This document shows positions 52,423-57,646 of a stretch of 64,000 bases of DNA, piece after piece (position 1 is the first letter of the stretch; the number at the start of each line of letters is the position of its first letter). The position numbers and the translations under genes were made by a program. Under the pieces are notes generated by a model that was not told the origin of the DNA, ran no database searches, and saw only the letters and a program-made list of their open reading frames with translations. The DNA is from Acidobacteriota bacterium (GTDB taxonomy: Bacteria > Acidobacteriota > Thermoanaerobaculia > Gp7-AA8). The stretch spans positions 64,001 to 128,000 of the forward strand of contig JAFATB010000002.1 of NCBI GenBank assembly GCA_019244185.1. The letters run 5' to 3'.

Positions 52423-54864
52423 TCAGGTCTCCACGTCGAGGAACAGATAGATCGCCGACAACGCGAACAGGATGTTCGCACTCCACGCGGACAGCAGCGG
52501 CGGCAGGTTGCCGACTTCGCCGAACTTCGTGAAGACGGCGTAGATCATCCAGTAGACGATGCCGACCACGAGCGCGATGCCGATGCCGTACAGCGCGCCG
52601 CGTTTGCCCATGCGGAACGCGAACGGCAGCGCGATCAGCGACATGACCAGGCTGATCACCGGCCACGAGGCCTTCGAGTACAGCTTCACCGACAGCTCGT
52701 CCGCGCCGTAGCCCGAGCTGCGCACGCTCTGGATGTAGCGCCGCAGCTGCGCGTACGTCATCTGATCCGGCGGCTTCACCTCGGTCGCGAAATCCTCCGG
52801 GCGCTCGGGATAGAACAGCGCCAGCGGCTGCGTGATCCGCGTGAACGTCGAGCGGCCATCGTCGCCGAACGAGCGCATCCAGCCGTCCTCGAACGCCCAC
52901 GCCTGGCCGTTCCACCGCGCGTGATTCGCGTAGACGCGCCGCGTCAGCCGGAACTCGGTCGGATGAAACTCGAAGACCTGTACCTGCGTCAGCTGCTTCG
53001 CGTTCTTGTCGTACGTGAGGAAGTTGATGAGGTATCGGCCCTTGCCGCGATACCAGAGCTTCTGTTGCGCGGCCGACGTCACCGGCGGCTTGCCTTGGAT
53101 CGTGCGCTTCAGTTCATCGACGCGCTGGTTCGAGTACGGAAGGATGAAGTCGAGGATGAAGTACGCGAGCACGCTGATGATCGCGGCGACGCAGACGATC
53201 GGCACCGCGATGCGATACAGCGACACACCGTTCGACTTGATGGCCGTGACCTCGTTGTTCTTCGACAGCACGCCGAACGTCACCAGCGTTGCCACCAGGA
53301 CCGAGATCGGCAGCGTCCAGTTCAGCACCTGGAAGATCTGGAAGCGGTAGTACGTGAGCAGCACGTCGAAGCCGATGTTGTTCTCGCGCACTTCCTTCGC
53401 GATCTCGGTGTAGTCGACGATGATGAACAGCGCGACCACCGAGATCAGCACCATCGCCAGGATCTTGAGGAACTCGCGCAGGATGTAGCGGTCGAGGATG
53501 TTCGGGAACGTGATGTCGAGCCGGTTGAGCACCGGCTCATCCTCGACCTGCGCGCCGCTCGAGACCGCGACGGCAGGCGAGCGCCGCGCGCGTTTCGCCG
53601 ACAACGCCCCGGCAATCCTCCGCACGATGCCGCCCTCGGGACGGCTGGAGAGCACATCGCGGTTCGCGCGGCTGAGCAGGTAGAACCCGAGAATCAGCAG
53701 CAGGACGTTCGCCGCCCACATCCCGACCGCCGGCGAGACTTTGCCCGTCGCGGCGAGATGCTCGCCGTTGTTGATCATCACGTAGTAGAAAAGGATGATC
53801 GCGATACTTAAAGAAAATCCTGAGCTTTTGCCGCCGCGGCGGTTCGTGATGCCGAGCGGCAGGCCGAGGATGCCGAAGGCGATGCAGGCGAACGGAATGG
53901 CGAACTTCTTGTGGATCTCGACGCGCGCGAGATTGCGCGTCATGCGGTCTTCTTCCTGCGTGCTGCGGCGGAGCTTCTGTTCCTCGTTGAGCAGCTCGCG
54001 CAGGTCCATCTCACGGAGAGAACGCGCGAGCTGATTGCCGGTGAACTCGGTGTTGATCGACGGCAGGCGGATGCGCTGCGAGGCGTTGCGGGTGAAGTCG
54101 TAGCGGTCGGGCCGGCGCGGATCCCAGATGTGCGTCTCCGCGCCCTGGAGGTTCATCCACACTTCCTTCGACGGCTTGAGGATGGAGAGATTGCCGGTCT
54201 GGGCGACGATGACACGCTGGCCGCCGCCGGTCTGCACGAGCGCGGACGAGTCGTCGTCGGTGTGCGGCGCCGTAATGTTGTTCGACATCTGCTGCGGCGT
54301 CGTGGCGTCGTGCGATTCGTCGGCGCGGTTGTCGGCGACGAACACACCTTTCCATTTGCCCGTCGCCGGATCCGTATCGTTCACGTAGATCATGAGGTTT
54401 TCGTACTGGTCGTAGAAGATCCGCGGCTGGATCGCTTTCTCGGCCGACGAGGTCATGAGCTCCGCGCGCAGCGCGACGAACTGCTGATTGCCTTTCGGCA
54501 TCACGAAATTGATGAGGTAGAGGCTCAGCAGGAAGACGAGCGTGCTGAAGAGAAAGACCGGGCGGTAGATCGTGCGCGTGGAGATGCCGAGCGCGCGCAT
54601 GGCCACGATCTCGGAGTCGGACGAGAGCCGGCCGATGGCGATGAGGATGCCGAAGAGCAGCGACATCGGCACGGTGAGCACGATGATGTGCGGCATCGAA
54701 TACAGGAGCAGCTTGCCGACGGCAGCGCCGGAGAGCGAGCGCCGGATGATCATGCCGGCCATGTCGAAGAGGCGCTGCATGAGGATGATGGAGGTGTAGA
54801 ACGCGAAGCCGAGAAGTGTCGGCCCGAGCATCTCCTTGAAGATGTAGCGCGTGAGGATCTTCAT
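52423..54864 (-). CDS. lptF: fused LptF/LptG LPS export permease
   Basis: two YjgP/YjgQ halves: ILTRYI..RLSSDSEIVAMRALG and ILDRYI..SKNNEVTAIKSNG. Confidence 0.93.
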   Translation of the reverse strand: MKILTRYIFKEMLGPTLLGFAFYTSIILMQRLFDMAGMIIRRSLSGAAVGKLLLYSMPHIIVLTVPMSLLFGILIAIGRLSSDSEIVAMRALGISTRTIYRPVFLFSTLVFLLSLYLINFVMPKGNQQFVALRAELMTSSAEKAIQPRIFYDQYENLMIYVNDTDPATGKWKGVFVADNRADESHDATTPQQMSNNITAPHTDDDSSALVQTGGGQRVIVAQTGNLSILKPSKEVWMNLQGAETHIWDPRRPDRYDFTRNASQRIRLPSINTEFTGNQLARSLREMDLRELLNEEQKLRRSTQEEDRMTRNLARVEIHKKFAIPFACIAFGILGLPLGITNRRGGKSSGFSLSIAIILFYYVMINNGEHLAATGKVSPAVGMWAANVLLLILGFYLLSRANRDVLSSRPEGGIVRRIAGALSAKRARRSPAVAVSSGAQVEDEPVLNRLDITFPNILDRYILREFLKILAMVLISVVALFIIVDYTEIAKEVRENNIGFDVLLTYYRFQIFQVLNWTLPISVLVATLVTFGVLSKNNEVTAIKSNGVSLYRIAVPIVCVAAIISVLAYFILDFILPYSNQRVDELKRTIQGKPPVTSAAQQKLWYRGKGRYLINFLTYDKNAKQLTQVQVFEFHPTEFRLTRRVYANHARWNGQAWAFEDGWMRSFGDDGRSTFTRITQPLALFYPERPEDFATEVKPPDQMTYAQLRRYIQSVRSSGYGADELSVKLYSKASWPVISLVMSLIALPFAFRMGKRGALYGIGIALVVGIVYWMIYAVFTKFGEVGNLPPLLSAWSANILFALSAIYLFLDVET

Positions 54865-55317: not shown

Positions 55318-56268
55318 TCACGCCGCCGCGATCTCCAGCACATCCGCCAGCACGGCCGCGGCGGTCGGCATCGAGCCGGCGCCGCGGCCGCTGAGGCAGA
55401 TCTCGCCGACGGCGCGGCCGCGGATCACCACCGCGTTCTGTTCGTCGACAACGCGTGCGAGCGGATCGTTCGCTGGCAACGCGCGTGTCTCGACCGTCAG
55501 CTCGACGCCGCCATGCACCCGTGTTGCCTCGGCGACTTGGCGCAGTACGCGACCGTTTCTGCGCGCATGCTCGACGTCCGCCACCGTGATGCTCGCGATG
55601 CCATCGACGCGCGTACGCCGTGGCGGTGCGTCGAACGCAAGCTCGGCGAGAATGCGCAGCTTCTGCGCCGCGTCTTCGCCGCTGAGGTCGAGCGACGGAT
55701 CAGCTTCCGCAAACCCGCGCTCCTGCGCGCACGCGAGCGCCTCCGCCAAGGACAGTCCGGCTTCCATGCGCGTGAGCACGTAGTTCGACGTCCCGTTGAG
55801 GATGCCGCGGATCGACTCGATCGAATCGCCGGCGAGTCCGCGGCGCAATGCGCCGACGACGGGCACGCCGCCGCAGACGCTCGCCTCGAATCCGATCGCG
55901 ACGCCGCTGCGCGCCGCCGCCGCGAACAACTCGCCGCCTGCCGTCGCCAGCAGCGCCTTGTTCGCGGTCACGACATGCCGCCGGCGCGCGAGCGCGCGGC
56001 GCACGAACGCGGCGGCCGCGTGCACGCCGCCGACCGTTTCGACGACGACGTCGCAGGTGTCGTCGTCGATGACGTCCGTGGCCGCCGTCGTGAGGAGCGC
56101 GCGATCCGCGATCGCGCGCTCCTTGGCGGCGTCGCGCACGAGAATGCGCGTGATGGAAAGCTCGACGCCGTGACGCGCGCGAATCCGCGCGCCTTCGCGT
56201 TCGACGAGCTGCACGAAGCCGCCGCCGACGGTGCCGCAGCCGAGGAGACCGATGCGCACGCGTTTCAT
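55318..56268 (-). CDS. hom: homoserine dehydrogenase (short form, no ACT domain)
   Basis: GCGTVGGG, VTANKA, EASVCGGVP, GILNGTSNY, EADPSLD, GRGAG..PTA. Confidence 0.93.
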   Translation of the reverse strand: MKRVRIGLLGCGTVGGGFVQLVEREGARIRARHGVELSITRILVRDAAKERAIADRALLTTAATDVIDDDTCDVVVETVGGVHAAAAFVRRALARRRHVVTANKALLATAGGELFAAAARSGVAIGFEASVCGGVPVVGALRRGLAGDSIESIRGILNGTSNYVLTRMEAGLSLAEALACAQERGFAEADPSLDLSGEDAAQKLRILAELAFDAPPRRTRVDGIASITVADVEHARRNGRVLRQVAEATRVHGGVELTVETRALPANDPLARVVDEQNAVVIRGRAVGEICLSGRGAGSMPTAAAVLADVLEIAAA

Positions 56269-57452
56269 GCGACTCGCTCCTCGCCCGCCGCCGCGTCGCG
56301 GCGTACCGTACGCGCGAACGCCTGCTCGAGATCGTCGATGAGATCGCGCACGTCTTCGAGTCCGACCGACAGTCGGATCAGACTGTCGCTGATGCCGACG
56401 TTTCGGCGCACCTCCGGCTCGACGGACGCGTGCGTCATCGTCGCCGGATGGCAGAAGAGACTCTTCACCGAGCCGAGGCTCTCGGCGAGCGTCCAGAGGT
56501 GCGGGCGGCGGGTGAAGGCGCGCGTTTCTTCGAGCGTGGTGTCGAGCTCGAACGACACGATCGCGCCGAAGCGCGCCATCTGGCGGCGCGCGATCGCGTG
56601 TCCCGGCTCGTCGACGAGGCCGGGATAGTAGACGCGTCGCACGAGATCGTGTGCGAGGAGCCAGCGCGCGACCAGCTCGGCGTTCGAGCAATGCCGCTCC
56701 ATCCGCAAGCCGAGCGTCTTGATGCCGCGCAAGACGAGAAAGCAATCCTGCGGACCGGGCACCGCGCCGATGGCGTTCTGCAGGAACTTCAGCTCGTCGT
56801 AGAGTCCCTGATCGTTCGTGACCACGGCGCCGCCGAGGACGTCGCTGTGGCCGTTGATGTACTTGGTCGTCGAGTGCAGGACGAGATCGGCGCCGAGCGC
56901 GAGCGGCTGTTGCAGCACCGGCGTGGCAAACGTGTTGTCAACAACAGTGGTAATTCGGTTGGCACGAGCGATGGCAGAACACTTGGCGATGTCGGTGACA
57001 TGCAGCAGCGGATTCGACGGCGTCTCCAGCCAGAGCAGCTTCGTCTCGGGGCGGATGGCGGCGTCGATGTTCGCCGGCGACGTCGTATCAACGAACGTGA
57101 ACTCGATGCCGAAGCGCGCGAAGACTTTGGTGAAGATGCGCCACGCACCGCCGTAGAGGTCGCGCGTCGAGATGACGTGGTCTCCCCTGCTCAGCAGCGA
57201 AAGCACGGTGTGGATCGCGGCCATGCCGCTCGCGAACGCGAGGCCGTGGCGCGCGCCTTCGAGCGCGGCGAGGTTCTCCTCGAGCGCGGCGCGCGTCGGG
57301 TGACCGGTGCGCGCGTAGCAGAAGCCGTTATTTACGCCGGGCTCGGTCTGGCGGAAGGTCGAGGTCTGATAGATCGGCGTGGTGACGGCGCCGGTCGACG
57401 GATCGTCCGCCTGGCCGGCGTGAATGGCACGGGTATCGAAGCGGTAGGACAT
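56265..57452 (-). CDS. metB: cystathionine gamma-synthase/lyase (Cys/Met PLP enzyme)
   Basis: PIYQTSTF, ETPSNP, DNTFATP, HSTTKYINGHSD, SLGSVKSL; GGAGG SD. Confidence 0.88.
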   Translation of the reverse strand: MSYRFDTRAIHAGQADDPSTGAVTTPIYQTSTFRQTEPGVNNGFCYARTGHPTRAALEENLAALEGARHGLAFASGMAAIHTVLSLLSRGDHVISTRDLYGGAWRIFTKVFARFGIEFTFVDTTSPANIDAAIRPETKLLWLETPSNPLLHVTDIAKCSAIARANRITTVVDNTFATPVLQQPLALGADLVLHSTTKYINGHSDVLGGAVVTNDQGLYDELKFLQNAIGAVPGPQDCFLVLRGIKTLGLRMERHCSNAELVARWLLAHDLVRRVYYPGLVDEPGHAIARRQMARFGAIVSFELDTTLEETRAFTRRPHLWTLAESLGSVKSLFCHPATMTHASVEPEVRRNVGISDSLIRLSVGLEDVRDLIDDLEQAFARTVRRDAAAGEERVA

Positions 57453-57531
57453 TTGTTCCTCCGAACGCAAAGGTTCTGTGCGTGGCTGCGGGAGGGAAAG
57501 GCGCGGAGGGACCCGGGTCGGAAAACGCGGC

Positions 57532-57606
57532 TTACGCGTTCGCGCCCGGGCAACGCATCATCATTCGGCCCGAGAAGGTGAAGCTGTCGGTCGAACGGCG
57601 CGTCAT
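57532..57606 (-). CDS. putative Met-rich leader peptide MTRRSTDSFTFSGRMMMRCPGANA
   Basis: ATG 57606 to TAA 57532 with ATG ATG ATG CGT TGC; lies between promoter and metB. Confidence 0.75.
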   Translation of the reverse strand: MTRRSTDSFTFSGRMMMRCPGANA

Positions 57607-57617
57607 GTTGGCGCGGG

Positions 57618-57646
57618 AGAGTACGCGTGCGTCAGTCGCGTGTCAA
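57618..57646 (-). promoter_or_regulatory. sigma70 promoter of leader-metB-hom
   Basis: TTGACA (57646-57641)-N17-TACTCT (57623-57618). Confidence 0.75.

Follow-up and report, generated by a model that had tools for sequence, protein, structure and literature searches.

A conserved Met-codon leader ahead of metB-hom in Acidobacteriota as a candidate terminator-free attenuator

Transcription attenuation through leader peptides is an established mechanism in the trpL, hisL, thrL, leuL, ilvL and pheL systems, in which cognate codons are embedded in a short upstream open reading frame (uORF) ahead of biosynthetic genes and alternative RNA pairings are formed. Methionine genes, in the textbook account, are controlled by SAM riboswitches, T-boxes and protein regulators, and Met codons reportedly occur in some Pasteurellaceae thr leaders. 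The leader described here shares its general layout with the classical attenuators but departs from them in lacking both an intrinsic terminator and a Shine-Dalgarno (SD) sequence for its uORF, in the amino acid concerned, and in the distance of only 5 nt between the last control codon and the first Watson-Crick pair of the hairpin that follows. It is closer to the mycobacterial polycysteine attenuators of the Ms5788A type (10.1101/834739), with which, as far as the accessible portion of that report goes, it has in common a (near-)leaderless short ORF with control codons near its end, the lack of a terminator, a place ahead of sulfur amino-acid genes, and a default-OFF duplex that would be relieved by ribosome dwell. 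According to the same portion, the mycobacterial leaders sense Cys through stretches of as many as eight codons, which themselves form pairs with the SD region, whereas the Met leader carries two to five Met codons, which are not the pairing strand, together with a separate hairpin at a fixed offset. A further parallel is offered by the dnaX and HIV stem-loops, which, in the accessible text of the two reports (PMC7282821, PMC8861025), start at +12 or +13, stay folded in front of an mRNA channel of 11 nt and hinder both translocation and the binding of A-site tRNA; the A-site effect is lost when the stem is extended (PMC8861025). The position of the first pair at +12 from the P-site codon is shared, in part through the construction of our search pattern; the Met leader differs in having no slippery sequence and in a hairpin that spans 31-76 nt. 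We consider it most likely that the family reported here represents ribosome-mediated attenuation akin to that of the mycobacterial polycysteine leaders, without a classical terminator and without a known riboswitch.

For Actinobacteria, the consulted part of PMC1262725 reports no conserved RNA elements upstream of Met operons, and Acidobacteria have almost no annotated attenuators in the part of PMC2965389 available to us. Our literature search, which included the accessible sections of PMC8632094 and PMC4833913, returned neither a Met-codon leader attenuator nor the present element, with the proviso that leader-gene tables could list members; a terminator-free Met-sensing design was not found described in the literature searched, in which subscription papers were thinly covered.

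In the window, by which we mean the whole stretch of 64,000 nucleotides that was analysed, parB and a gene for a Cys/Met PLP enzyme flank the leader, and hom comes next. Its parts, in the order of transcription, are as follows.

57641..57646, minus strand: -35 hexamer TTGACA, which shares the TGA stop codon of parB; TTGAC is present in 64 of the 69 relatives with a promoter match
57618..57623, minus strand: -10 hexamer TACTCT (TANNNT type), kept in relatives with a 17- or 18-nt spacer
57532..57606, minus strand: near-leaderless, SD-less uORF of 24 codons, found in 81 of 84 orthologue leaders
57565..57567, minus strand: rare Arg codon CGA, directly 5' of the first putative sensor Met; CGA in 77 of 81 leaders
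57556..57564, minus strand: putative Met-x-Met sensor codons (three ATG here); the last Met, 57558-57556, stands at a fixed distance to the hairpin
57545..57551, minus strand: 5' arm (B) of the putative gating hairpin, first Watson-Crick pair at 57550, CCCGGG at 57550-57545
57524..57540, minus strand: inner hairpin over the stop codon, variable in sequence and length among relatives
57511..57517, minus strand: 3' arm (D) of the putative gating hairpin, CCCGGG at 57517-57512; its GGG may alternatively pair with the adjacent C-rich segment
57505..57509, minus strand: segment E, anti-SD CCTCC; C[CT]TCC lies no more than 8 nt past D in 78 of 81 leaders
57463..57504, minus strand: C-rich, G-poor spacer, by base composition a possible Rho site or ribosome standby site
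57458..57462, minus strand: SD sequence GGAGG of metB, from sequence and alignment
56265..57452, minus strand: metB, in all likelihood a cystathionine gamma-synthase of the Cys/Met PLP family, from PRK07811 and the downstream hom; its ATG lies at 57452
55318..56268, minus strand: homoserine dehydrogenase (hom; PRK06349 at 361 bits), with a 4-nt overlap with the metB stop

An earlier note on this DNA, drawn up from the letters alone, had proposed a methionine-sensing attenuator on the basis of TTGACA-N17-TACTCT, an 11-nt gap, an SD-less 24-codon uORF with three ATG codons, an inner hairpin over the stop, two CCCGGG arms, CCTCC and the metB SD, and all of these elements are present where it had placed them. 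The -35/-10 spacer of 17 nt falls within the range seen in relatives, and the position of the -10 hexamer would leave a 5' UTR of only a few nucleotides. The uORF ATG is situated 8-12 nt past the -10 hexamer in 68 of 69 relatives (11 nt in the leader at hand), against 6-7 nt at other apparently leaderless genes of the same genome, a comparison that bears on whether the start is strictly leaderless. Reads from one weak RNA run gave no coverage of the leader, a result that weighs neither way. A scan for sigma-70 consensus promoters left the promoter of the uORF uncalled because the -10 hexamer fits the consensus at 3 of 6 positions only. The upstream context of this kept promoter differs among relatives, some of which have additional genes or arrays of repeats in the gap between parB and the promoter, with the promoter retained.

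The product of the first gene is, judged by its sequence, most likely cystathionine gamma-synthase; the best NCBIfam model, PRK07811, scores 511.1 bits, just under its cutoff of 513. Since JGI names many of its homologues gamma-lyase, the enzyme activity is predicted only. We call the gene metB because hom adjoins it (and follows it in most relatives), because a SAM riboswitch precedes two orthologues, and because a separate paralogue exists. The latter, 54% identical and located beside a cysteine-synthase-like gene, was without the leader at 10 of 10 loci. One genome (G035) possesses two metB copies with a leader of its own before each (L096 and L101).

Searching 124 family genomes yielded 84 distinct leaders of metB orthologues after identical ones had been merged, and 81 of these, all in the Thermoanaerobaculia family, contain M-x-M-x-x-P-(G/D/S) followed by a stop. 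Because both Met positions were required by the search pattern, the informative number is that of the three misses: one leader is cut by a contig end, and the other two (G088 and G002) carry SAM-I/IV matches. The loci from G091 and G036, both unpublished genomes, are counted within the 81 and one of them within the 69, and both were omitted from alignment A1, so that no claim depends on these two by themselves; the genomes are related, and the leader counts are not independent. The C-terminal core of the uORF is conserved as R-M-x-M-x-x-P-G-A-x-A-stop, and the N-terminus varies in length. The first ATG past the -10 hexamer, picked regardless of frame, is in frame with this core at 69 of 69 loci over 13 distances ranging from 21 to 78 nt; of the 82 loci entered into the frame test, 9 lacked a promoter match and 4 lacked the core as the script defined it. 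At the usual position the uORF terminates with TAG (48), TAA (24) or TGA (2). Met accounts for 272 of 1679 non-start uORF codons (16.2%), compared with 1.66% genome-wide; the conservation of a Met-codon uORF across orthologues, which the earlier note had put forward as a test, is borne out. No Met codon occurs 3' of the last sensor Met (+1 to +7); upstream, Met is found at -2 in all leaders and at -5 in 51 of 79. An independent check of the first Met is provided by a metagenome pattern that left this position unspecified: among the matches listed, and with four whole-genome loci uncounted, it is present in 50 of 50 hits with metB next. By comparison of these sequences, the uORF is real and conserved, and selection on its frame, stop and Met codons is shown by the same comparison. 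One locus, L051, has AGG at the usual start site of the uORF and an in-frame ATG further on.

Two details of the original proposal did not survive the alignment. The unit is Met-x-Met rather than three consecutive Met codons, its middle codon being ATG in 38 and GTG in 37 of the 81 metB leaders, and the Cys codon that had been singled out is TGC in only 10 of 81, with CGC (Arg) in 68; Cys as the sensed amino acid is rejected on this ground. A codon that is kept is CGA, which makes up 2.6% of Arg codons genome-wide, yet is present in 77 of 81 metB leaders; none was found in the second set of loci described below. Candidate reasons for this near-invariance are that the codon is decoded slowly, that it takes part in a short hairpin of alternative pairing, or that RNA polymerase pauses there. 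As a chance control, we considered 21,756 ATG-led ORFs of 15-35 codons in the source genome, of which 477 contain an internal M-x-M and 25 contain MMM; the full architecture of motif, stem and C-tract was encountered once among the 21,756, in the metB leader itself, from which the pattern had been derived.

The hairpin proposed by the earlier note holds up as an outer helix formed by the CCCGGG pair, not as the inner hairpin, which is variable. Covariation was assessed on 70 of the 81 leaders, those with long inserts or from unpublished genomes being set aside. Pairing in the outer helix amounts to 94.7%, three pairs are changed on both sides, and its score was reached by 0 of 500 shuffles, a figure that relatedness inflates. 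The expected covarying stems are thereby in place, and RNAalifold returned the same helix unprompted; in an optimised register, 7 of 7 positions are paired in 76 of 81 leaders. Compensatory changes in the partner arm accompany Arg, Cys or Ser at +2 and Gly, Ser or Asp at +4, and since the amino acids vary while pairing persists, a constraint on the RNA rather than on the peptide is favoured. Counted from the P-site codon of a ribosome whose A site contains the last Met codon, the first Watson-Crick pair is a C-G at +12 in 81 of 81 metB leaders and in 31 of 31 loci of the second set, an invariance that is partly preset by the CC at this offset in the search patterns; nearly all orthologous leaders matched the CC-containing pattern, and the second unit of the tandem leaders described below is equally spaced. 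Position +11 forms a G-U wobble in 69 of 81 metB leaders and is unpaired in 27 of 31 loci of the second set, and +10 is paired in 0 of 81. Folded as a single sequence, the leader itself is not unusual (z -0.59).

Downstream of arm D, the first 30 nt consist of 47% C and 11% G (66 leaders). Two anti-SD CCTCC motifs had been postulated; the first is conserved, and the second, together with its pairing, is not conserved in alignment A1. The duplex of segment E with its own SD reaches -13.2 kcal/mol, versus -8.7 kcal/mol for the next window, and in both sets of loci the C-tract is a better partner for its own SD than is the next window. Set against the SD sequences of other loci, the shuffle fractions are 0.005 for the metB set and 0.068, not significant, for the second set, in which CCTCC is not conserved. 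In keeping with the earlier note, no strong intrinsic terminator was found (0 terminator-like sites in the window region), and neither alignment A1 nor A2 contains a U-run directly past either helix.

The unit is not confined to metB. Among the matches listed, Met-x-Met plus hairpin precedes PF01837, a sulfur-incorporating homocysteine enzyme unrelated to metB, in at least two metagenome contigs. The PF01837 gene is present in 19 of 401 phylum genomes and, within the class to which G367 belongs, in 34 of 91; the loci probably belong to the class Candidatus Aminicenantes because close homologues carry that label. We read 34 genome loci plus the two metagenome contigs, three further matches being left out, and in 31 of these 36 loci a short ORF contains M-(I/T/C)-M and is accompanied by a perfect stem of 5-13 bp at the same offset. 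Each of the five loci without the unit apparently follows directly after another gene. Covariation is evident here as well, with 24 double changes versus 8.4 in shuffled sets among 23 of the 31 loci and a score reached by 0 of 500 shuffles. The middle codon is ATA (Ile) in 20 and ACA in 2 of the 31. Past the last Met, the codons show free variation, Arg stands in place of Pro in 5 of 31, and the stop is immediate in 2 of 31; the latter two loci, L402 and L451, have TGA right past the last Met with the hairpin spacing kept, and L451 starts with GTG. They may represent minimal leaders that occur naturally, or else errors of assembly. The unit moves between unrelated homocysteine enzymes.

A candidate relative, set apart by its pattern and counted separately from the 31 loci, was detected in the phylum of G676, in which an SD-led W-I-M-x-x-P variant plus hairpin precedes PF01837 in 7 of 70 upstream regions (L426, L429, L439, L434, L458, L462 and L475) and is absent from the other 63. 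Since six of these seven uORFs, of 32 or 48 codons, overlap the gene start (+4 or +17), their mechanism must differ. One PF01837 gene of the same phylum is preceded by a clear SAM-I riboswitch. Other uORFs ahead of PF01837 are rich in Met or in Met and Cys: that of L457 contains five Met and three Cys codons, and those of L411 and L430 are of similar kind, the latter located downstream of a terminator-like hairpin. Outside the family, no metB orthologue was found at E<=1e-142 among 251 class genomes, and the metB-type pattern occurs in 3 of 393 non-family phylum genomes, none of the three fitting the longer, stem-bearing pattern. Named records with the motif are Thermoanaerobaculia or Acidobacteria Gp7; hits outside Acidobacteriota, among the matches listed, were dismissed as chance matches in coding frames. 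As a regulatory marker, the element could point to Met genes in uncultured Acidobacteriota.

In three genomes of the genus g23 (L073, L075 and L087), a tandem leader lies about 540 nt upstream of metB. A Met-rich uORF1 is followed by a hairpin and then by a C-rich stretch whose letters can pair with the SD of a uORF2, which has 56, 99 or 103 codons and contains repeat insertions, is always in frame and ends with M-x-x-x-S-M-x-x-P and a second hairpin before metB.

The data lend themselves to the following regulatory scheme. A ribosome would start at the 5' end of the transcript and then arrive at Met-x-Met. Once the last Met codon occupied the A site, the hairpin would lie right at the entrance of the mRNA channel (+12). 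When Met-tRNA is plentiful, the ribosome would pass and leave, and the vacated RNA would refold, closing the hairpin and pairing CCUCC with the SD of metB (OFF), a state that Rho polarity may strengthen. When elongator Met-tRNA is scarce, the ribosome would dwell and fray or shield the base of the hairpin; the freed GGG would capture the anti-SD, and therefore, as proposed, translation of metB-hom would be turned ON. That initiation would continue under depletion of elongator Met-tRNA rests on selective-charging theory. Given the sequence record, ribosome dwell on the uORF very probably senses Met-tRNA supply. That the output is release of the metB SD through capture of the anti-SD, as modelled by folding, we hold to be an even call, and our judgement is equally divided over the entire scheme, in which the leader would act as a ribosome-mediated, terminator-free attenuator reading Met-tRNA supply. 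The g23 arrangement, read as a tandem relay, is coherent with the polarity in which a stall means ON.

Folding predictions lend this output modest support that varies with the footprint assumed. In the free RNA of 66 leaders, the probability of anti-SD:SD pairing is 0.79 and that of an unpaired SD 0.03; the pairing is weaker in the PF01837 set. Covering 15 nt with the ribosome stalled at the last Met lowers anti-SD:SD pairing from 0.79 to 0.51 and the mean SD opening energy by 1.4 kcal/mol (-1.4), SD opening becoming easier by more than 0.5 kcal/mol in 44 of 66 leaders and changing the opposite way in 12. If the footprint is set to 12 nt, the hairpin persists in the stalled state (P 0.80) and access to the SD does not improve; in the leader at hand the opening energy does not fall on stalling (7.3 vs 7.4 kcal/mol), and the SD is mostly paired in every modelled state. 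A footprint scan on 33 of the 66 leaders places the switch step at 3-5 nt into the arm. Removal of the 5' arm in the PF01837 set raises the D:E hairpin, in which the freed GGG pairs with the adjacent C-tract, from 0.01 to 0.44, and clean SD release is seen at some loci, with a mean change of 0.4 kcal/mol (9 up, 5 down of 30). The exposure of the metB SD by a stall, as predicted by the earlier note, is therefore seen as a mean gain at 15 nt, but not at 12 nt or in the leader itself; its core idea, a translated Met-codon leader that would control metB-hom without an intrinsic terminator, withstood every sequence comparison that it had called for, and its interpretation as a whole is partly supported. 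Folding did not support a simple classical arrangement, in which run-through to the stop would hide the SD more than a Met stall (mean -0.44 kcal/mol; of 66 leaders, 15 changed upward and 27 downward).

By analogy with the dnaX and HIV stem-loops, the hairpin might itself be an active part of the sensor that, at +12, competes with or slows the delivery of Met-tRNA, a suggestion that we regard as tentative and rather doubtful. Read in this manner, hairpin gating at +12 would mean that two Met codons suffice for a strong response, for which classical leaders require long runs of codons. The accessible part of PMC8861025 argues that folding is fully retained by hairpins at +12, and on that view the leader hairpin may stay closed during a stall, a point against the stall-ON output; and as extended stems lose the A-site effect there and the hairpins in our set span 31-76 nt, A-site docking may not occur here. 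If gating does operate, the leader would be a natural amino-acid sensor that works through the A site, is conserved across Acidobacteriota and, in one genus, is stacked to form a two-ribosome AND relay. The fixed +12 geometry permits a direct test of whether mRNA-entry hairpins are used to tune amino-acid sensing.

A different output is conceivable for the same Met-tRNA signal, although we deem it unlikely. With the classical polarity, a stall at any Met codon would keep the hairpin and block Rho, and upon run-through the hairpin would melt, the ribosome would leave, and Rho would load on the C-rich leader and terminate before or in metB. The geometry is suggestive in this respect, as every Met codon lies upstream of the hairpin and, with an 11-nt channel, the last Met is the last site that leaves it folded; upstream Met codons would stall the ribosome before the hairpin, for which the stall-ON polarity has no need. 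In L402 and L451, which stop right past the last Met, a ribosome that advanced by one more codon would open just the three closing pairs. Both the spacer and the N-terminal part of the uORF (45% C, 20% G) are rich in C and poor in G, and rho is found in the source genome; another rho-like gene there (C26:477087-478184) scores under the curated cutoff. Rho-dependent control has been proposed for terminator-less Cys leaders in the accessible text of PMC1262725; the mycobacterial case, however, was translational when tested, according to the available part of 10.1101/834739. Moreover, the hairpin-intact state is predicted with the anti-SD:SD duplex paired (0.70-0.79), which would be OFF, and termination by Rho leaves unexplained both the anti-SD conserved in 78 of 81 leaders and the SD-controlled uORF2 of the tandem.

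Three further explanations depart from Met-tRNA as the signal. A nascent peptide, R-M-x-M-R-R-P-G-A, could arrest the ribosome by binding SAM or Met while still inside the exit tunnel, with TnaC and the MTO1 region of plant cystathionine gamma-synthase as parallels. Its C-terminal residues look conserved in the metB set, R-x-P-G resembles arrest motifs such as RAPG, and the seven loci of the other phylum read W-I-M-x-x-P; yet residues +2 and +4 vary together with compensatory changes in the partner arm, the PF01837 set tolerates free codons, Pro-to-Arg exchanges (5/31) and a stop straight after the last Met (2/31), and conservation of residue identity independent of RNA pairing was not seen, which makes arrest very improbable. 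Should AUG-N3-AUG matter as RNA, in a riboswitch or protein-binding element of a new kind with the ORF incidental, one could understand why CGA undergoes no synonymous change, why the variant of the other phylum retains the letters AUGGAUHAUG and why SAM riboswitches occupy the same gene. The N-terminal length changes are nevertheless all multiples of 3, stop codons interchange, uORF2 of g23 is in frame at 56, 99 and 103 codons, and there is one conserved helix only, with a little-conserved loop sequence and no Rfam match; we consider this idea extremely improbable. A general sensor of translation speed, or of aspartate-family amino acids rather than Met alone, would accommodate a middle codon for Val, Ile or Thr (GTG 37/81; ATA 20/31, ACA 2/31) and the rare CGA upstream, and hom also feeds Thr and Ile synthesis. 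Met, however, is the sole residue fixed in both sets, and both targets make homocysteine, so that a broader specificity appears quite improbable.

Returning to the Met-tRNA attenuator, its relation to SAM riboswitches deserves consideration. As the earlier note had surmised, no known Met element is recognisable here: Rfam gave no credible match on the leader, which fits no SAM riboswitch or T-box covariance model, nor any match at the gathering threshold on two sets of 10 and 14 relatives, and SAM-I was found in 0 of 124 family genomes. The two metB orthologues of G088 and G002 match SAM-I/IV (RF01725) with 40.9 and 40.2 bits, just under the cutoff of 41.1. Because these riboswitch-like elements replace the uORF there, the sign of control should be repression when Met or SAM is high. 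SAM-I/IV, SAM-I (RF00162) and SAM-II thus serve the same genes or pathway as the uORF leader, but they are ligand-binding aptamers, and the leader fits none of their models. Members of the uORF family do without a terminator, have a start codon that would lie close to the 5' terminus, and alternate with SAM riboswitches in front of a given gene. The protein tree gave no order of riboswitch and uORF states because the L258 row is long and apparently frameshifted. Further SAM-I/IV matches in family genomes were noted at L255, L256 and L259.

In the source genome, the Met-x-Met unit is single-copy, so there is no regulon. SAM-II-like elements (RF01726; 38.1 and 40.4 bits, cutoff 44) precede two homocysteine methyltransferase genes at L263:2550-2611 (minus strand) and L264:1340-1400 (plus strand), on C23 and C14, with terminator-like hairpins downstream; no leader of this kind was seen at the metX-like gene. 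The pathway may accordingly be split, with SAM-II-like switches at the methylation step and ribosome sensing at de novo homocysteine synthesis. A third match to the Cys/Met PLP family lies inside a 943-codon open frame of the same genome (C1:18576-19679), and the window also encodes, at 52423-54864 on the minus strand, a fused LptF-LptG permease of 813 aa that scores above both curated cutoffs.
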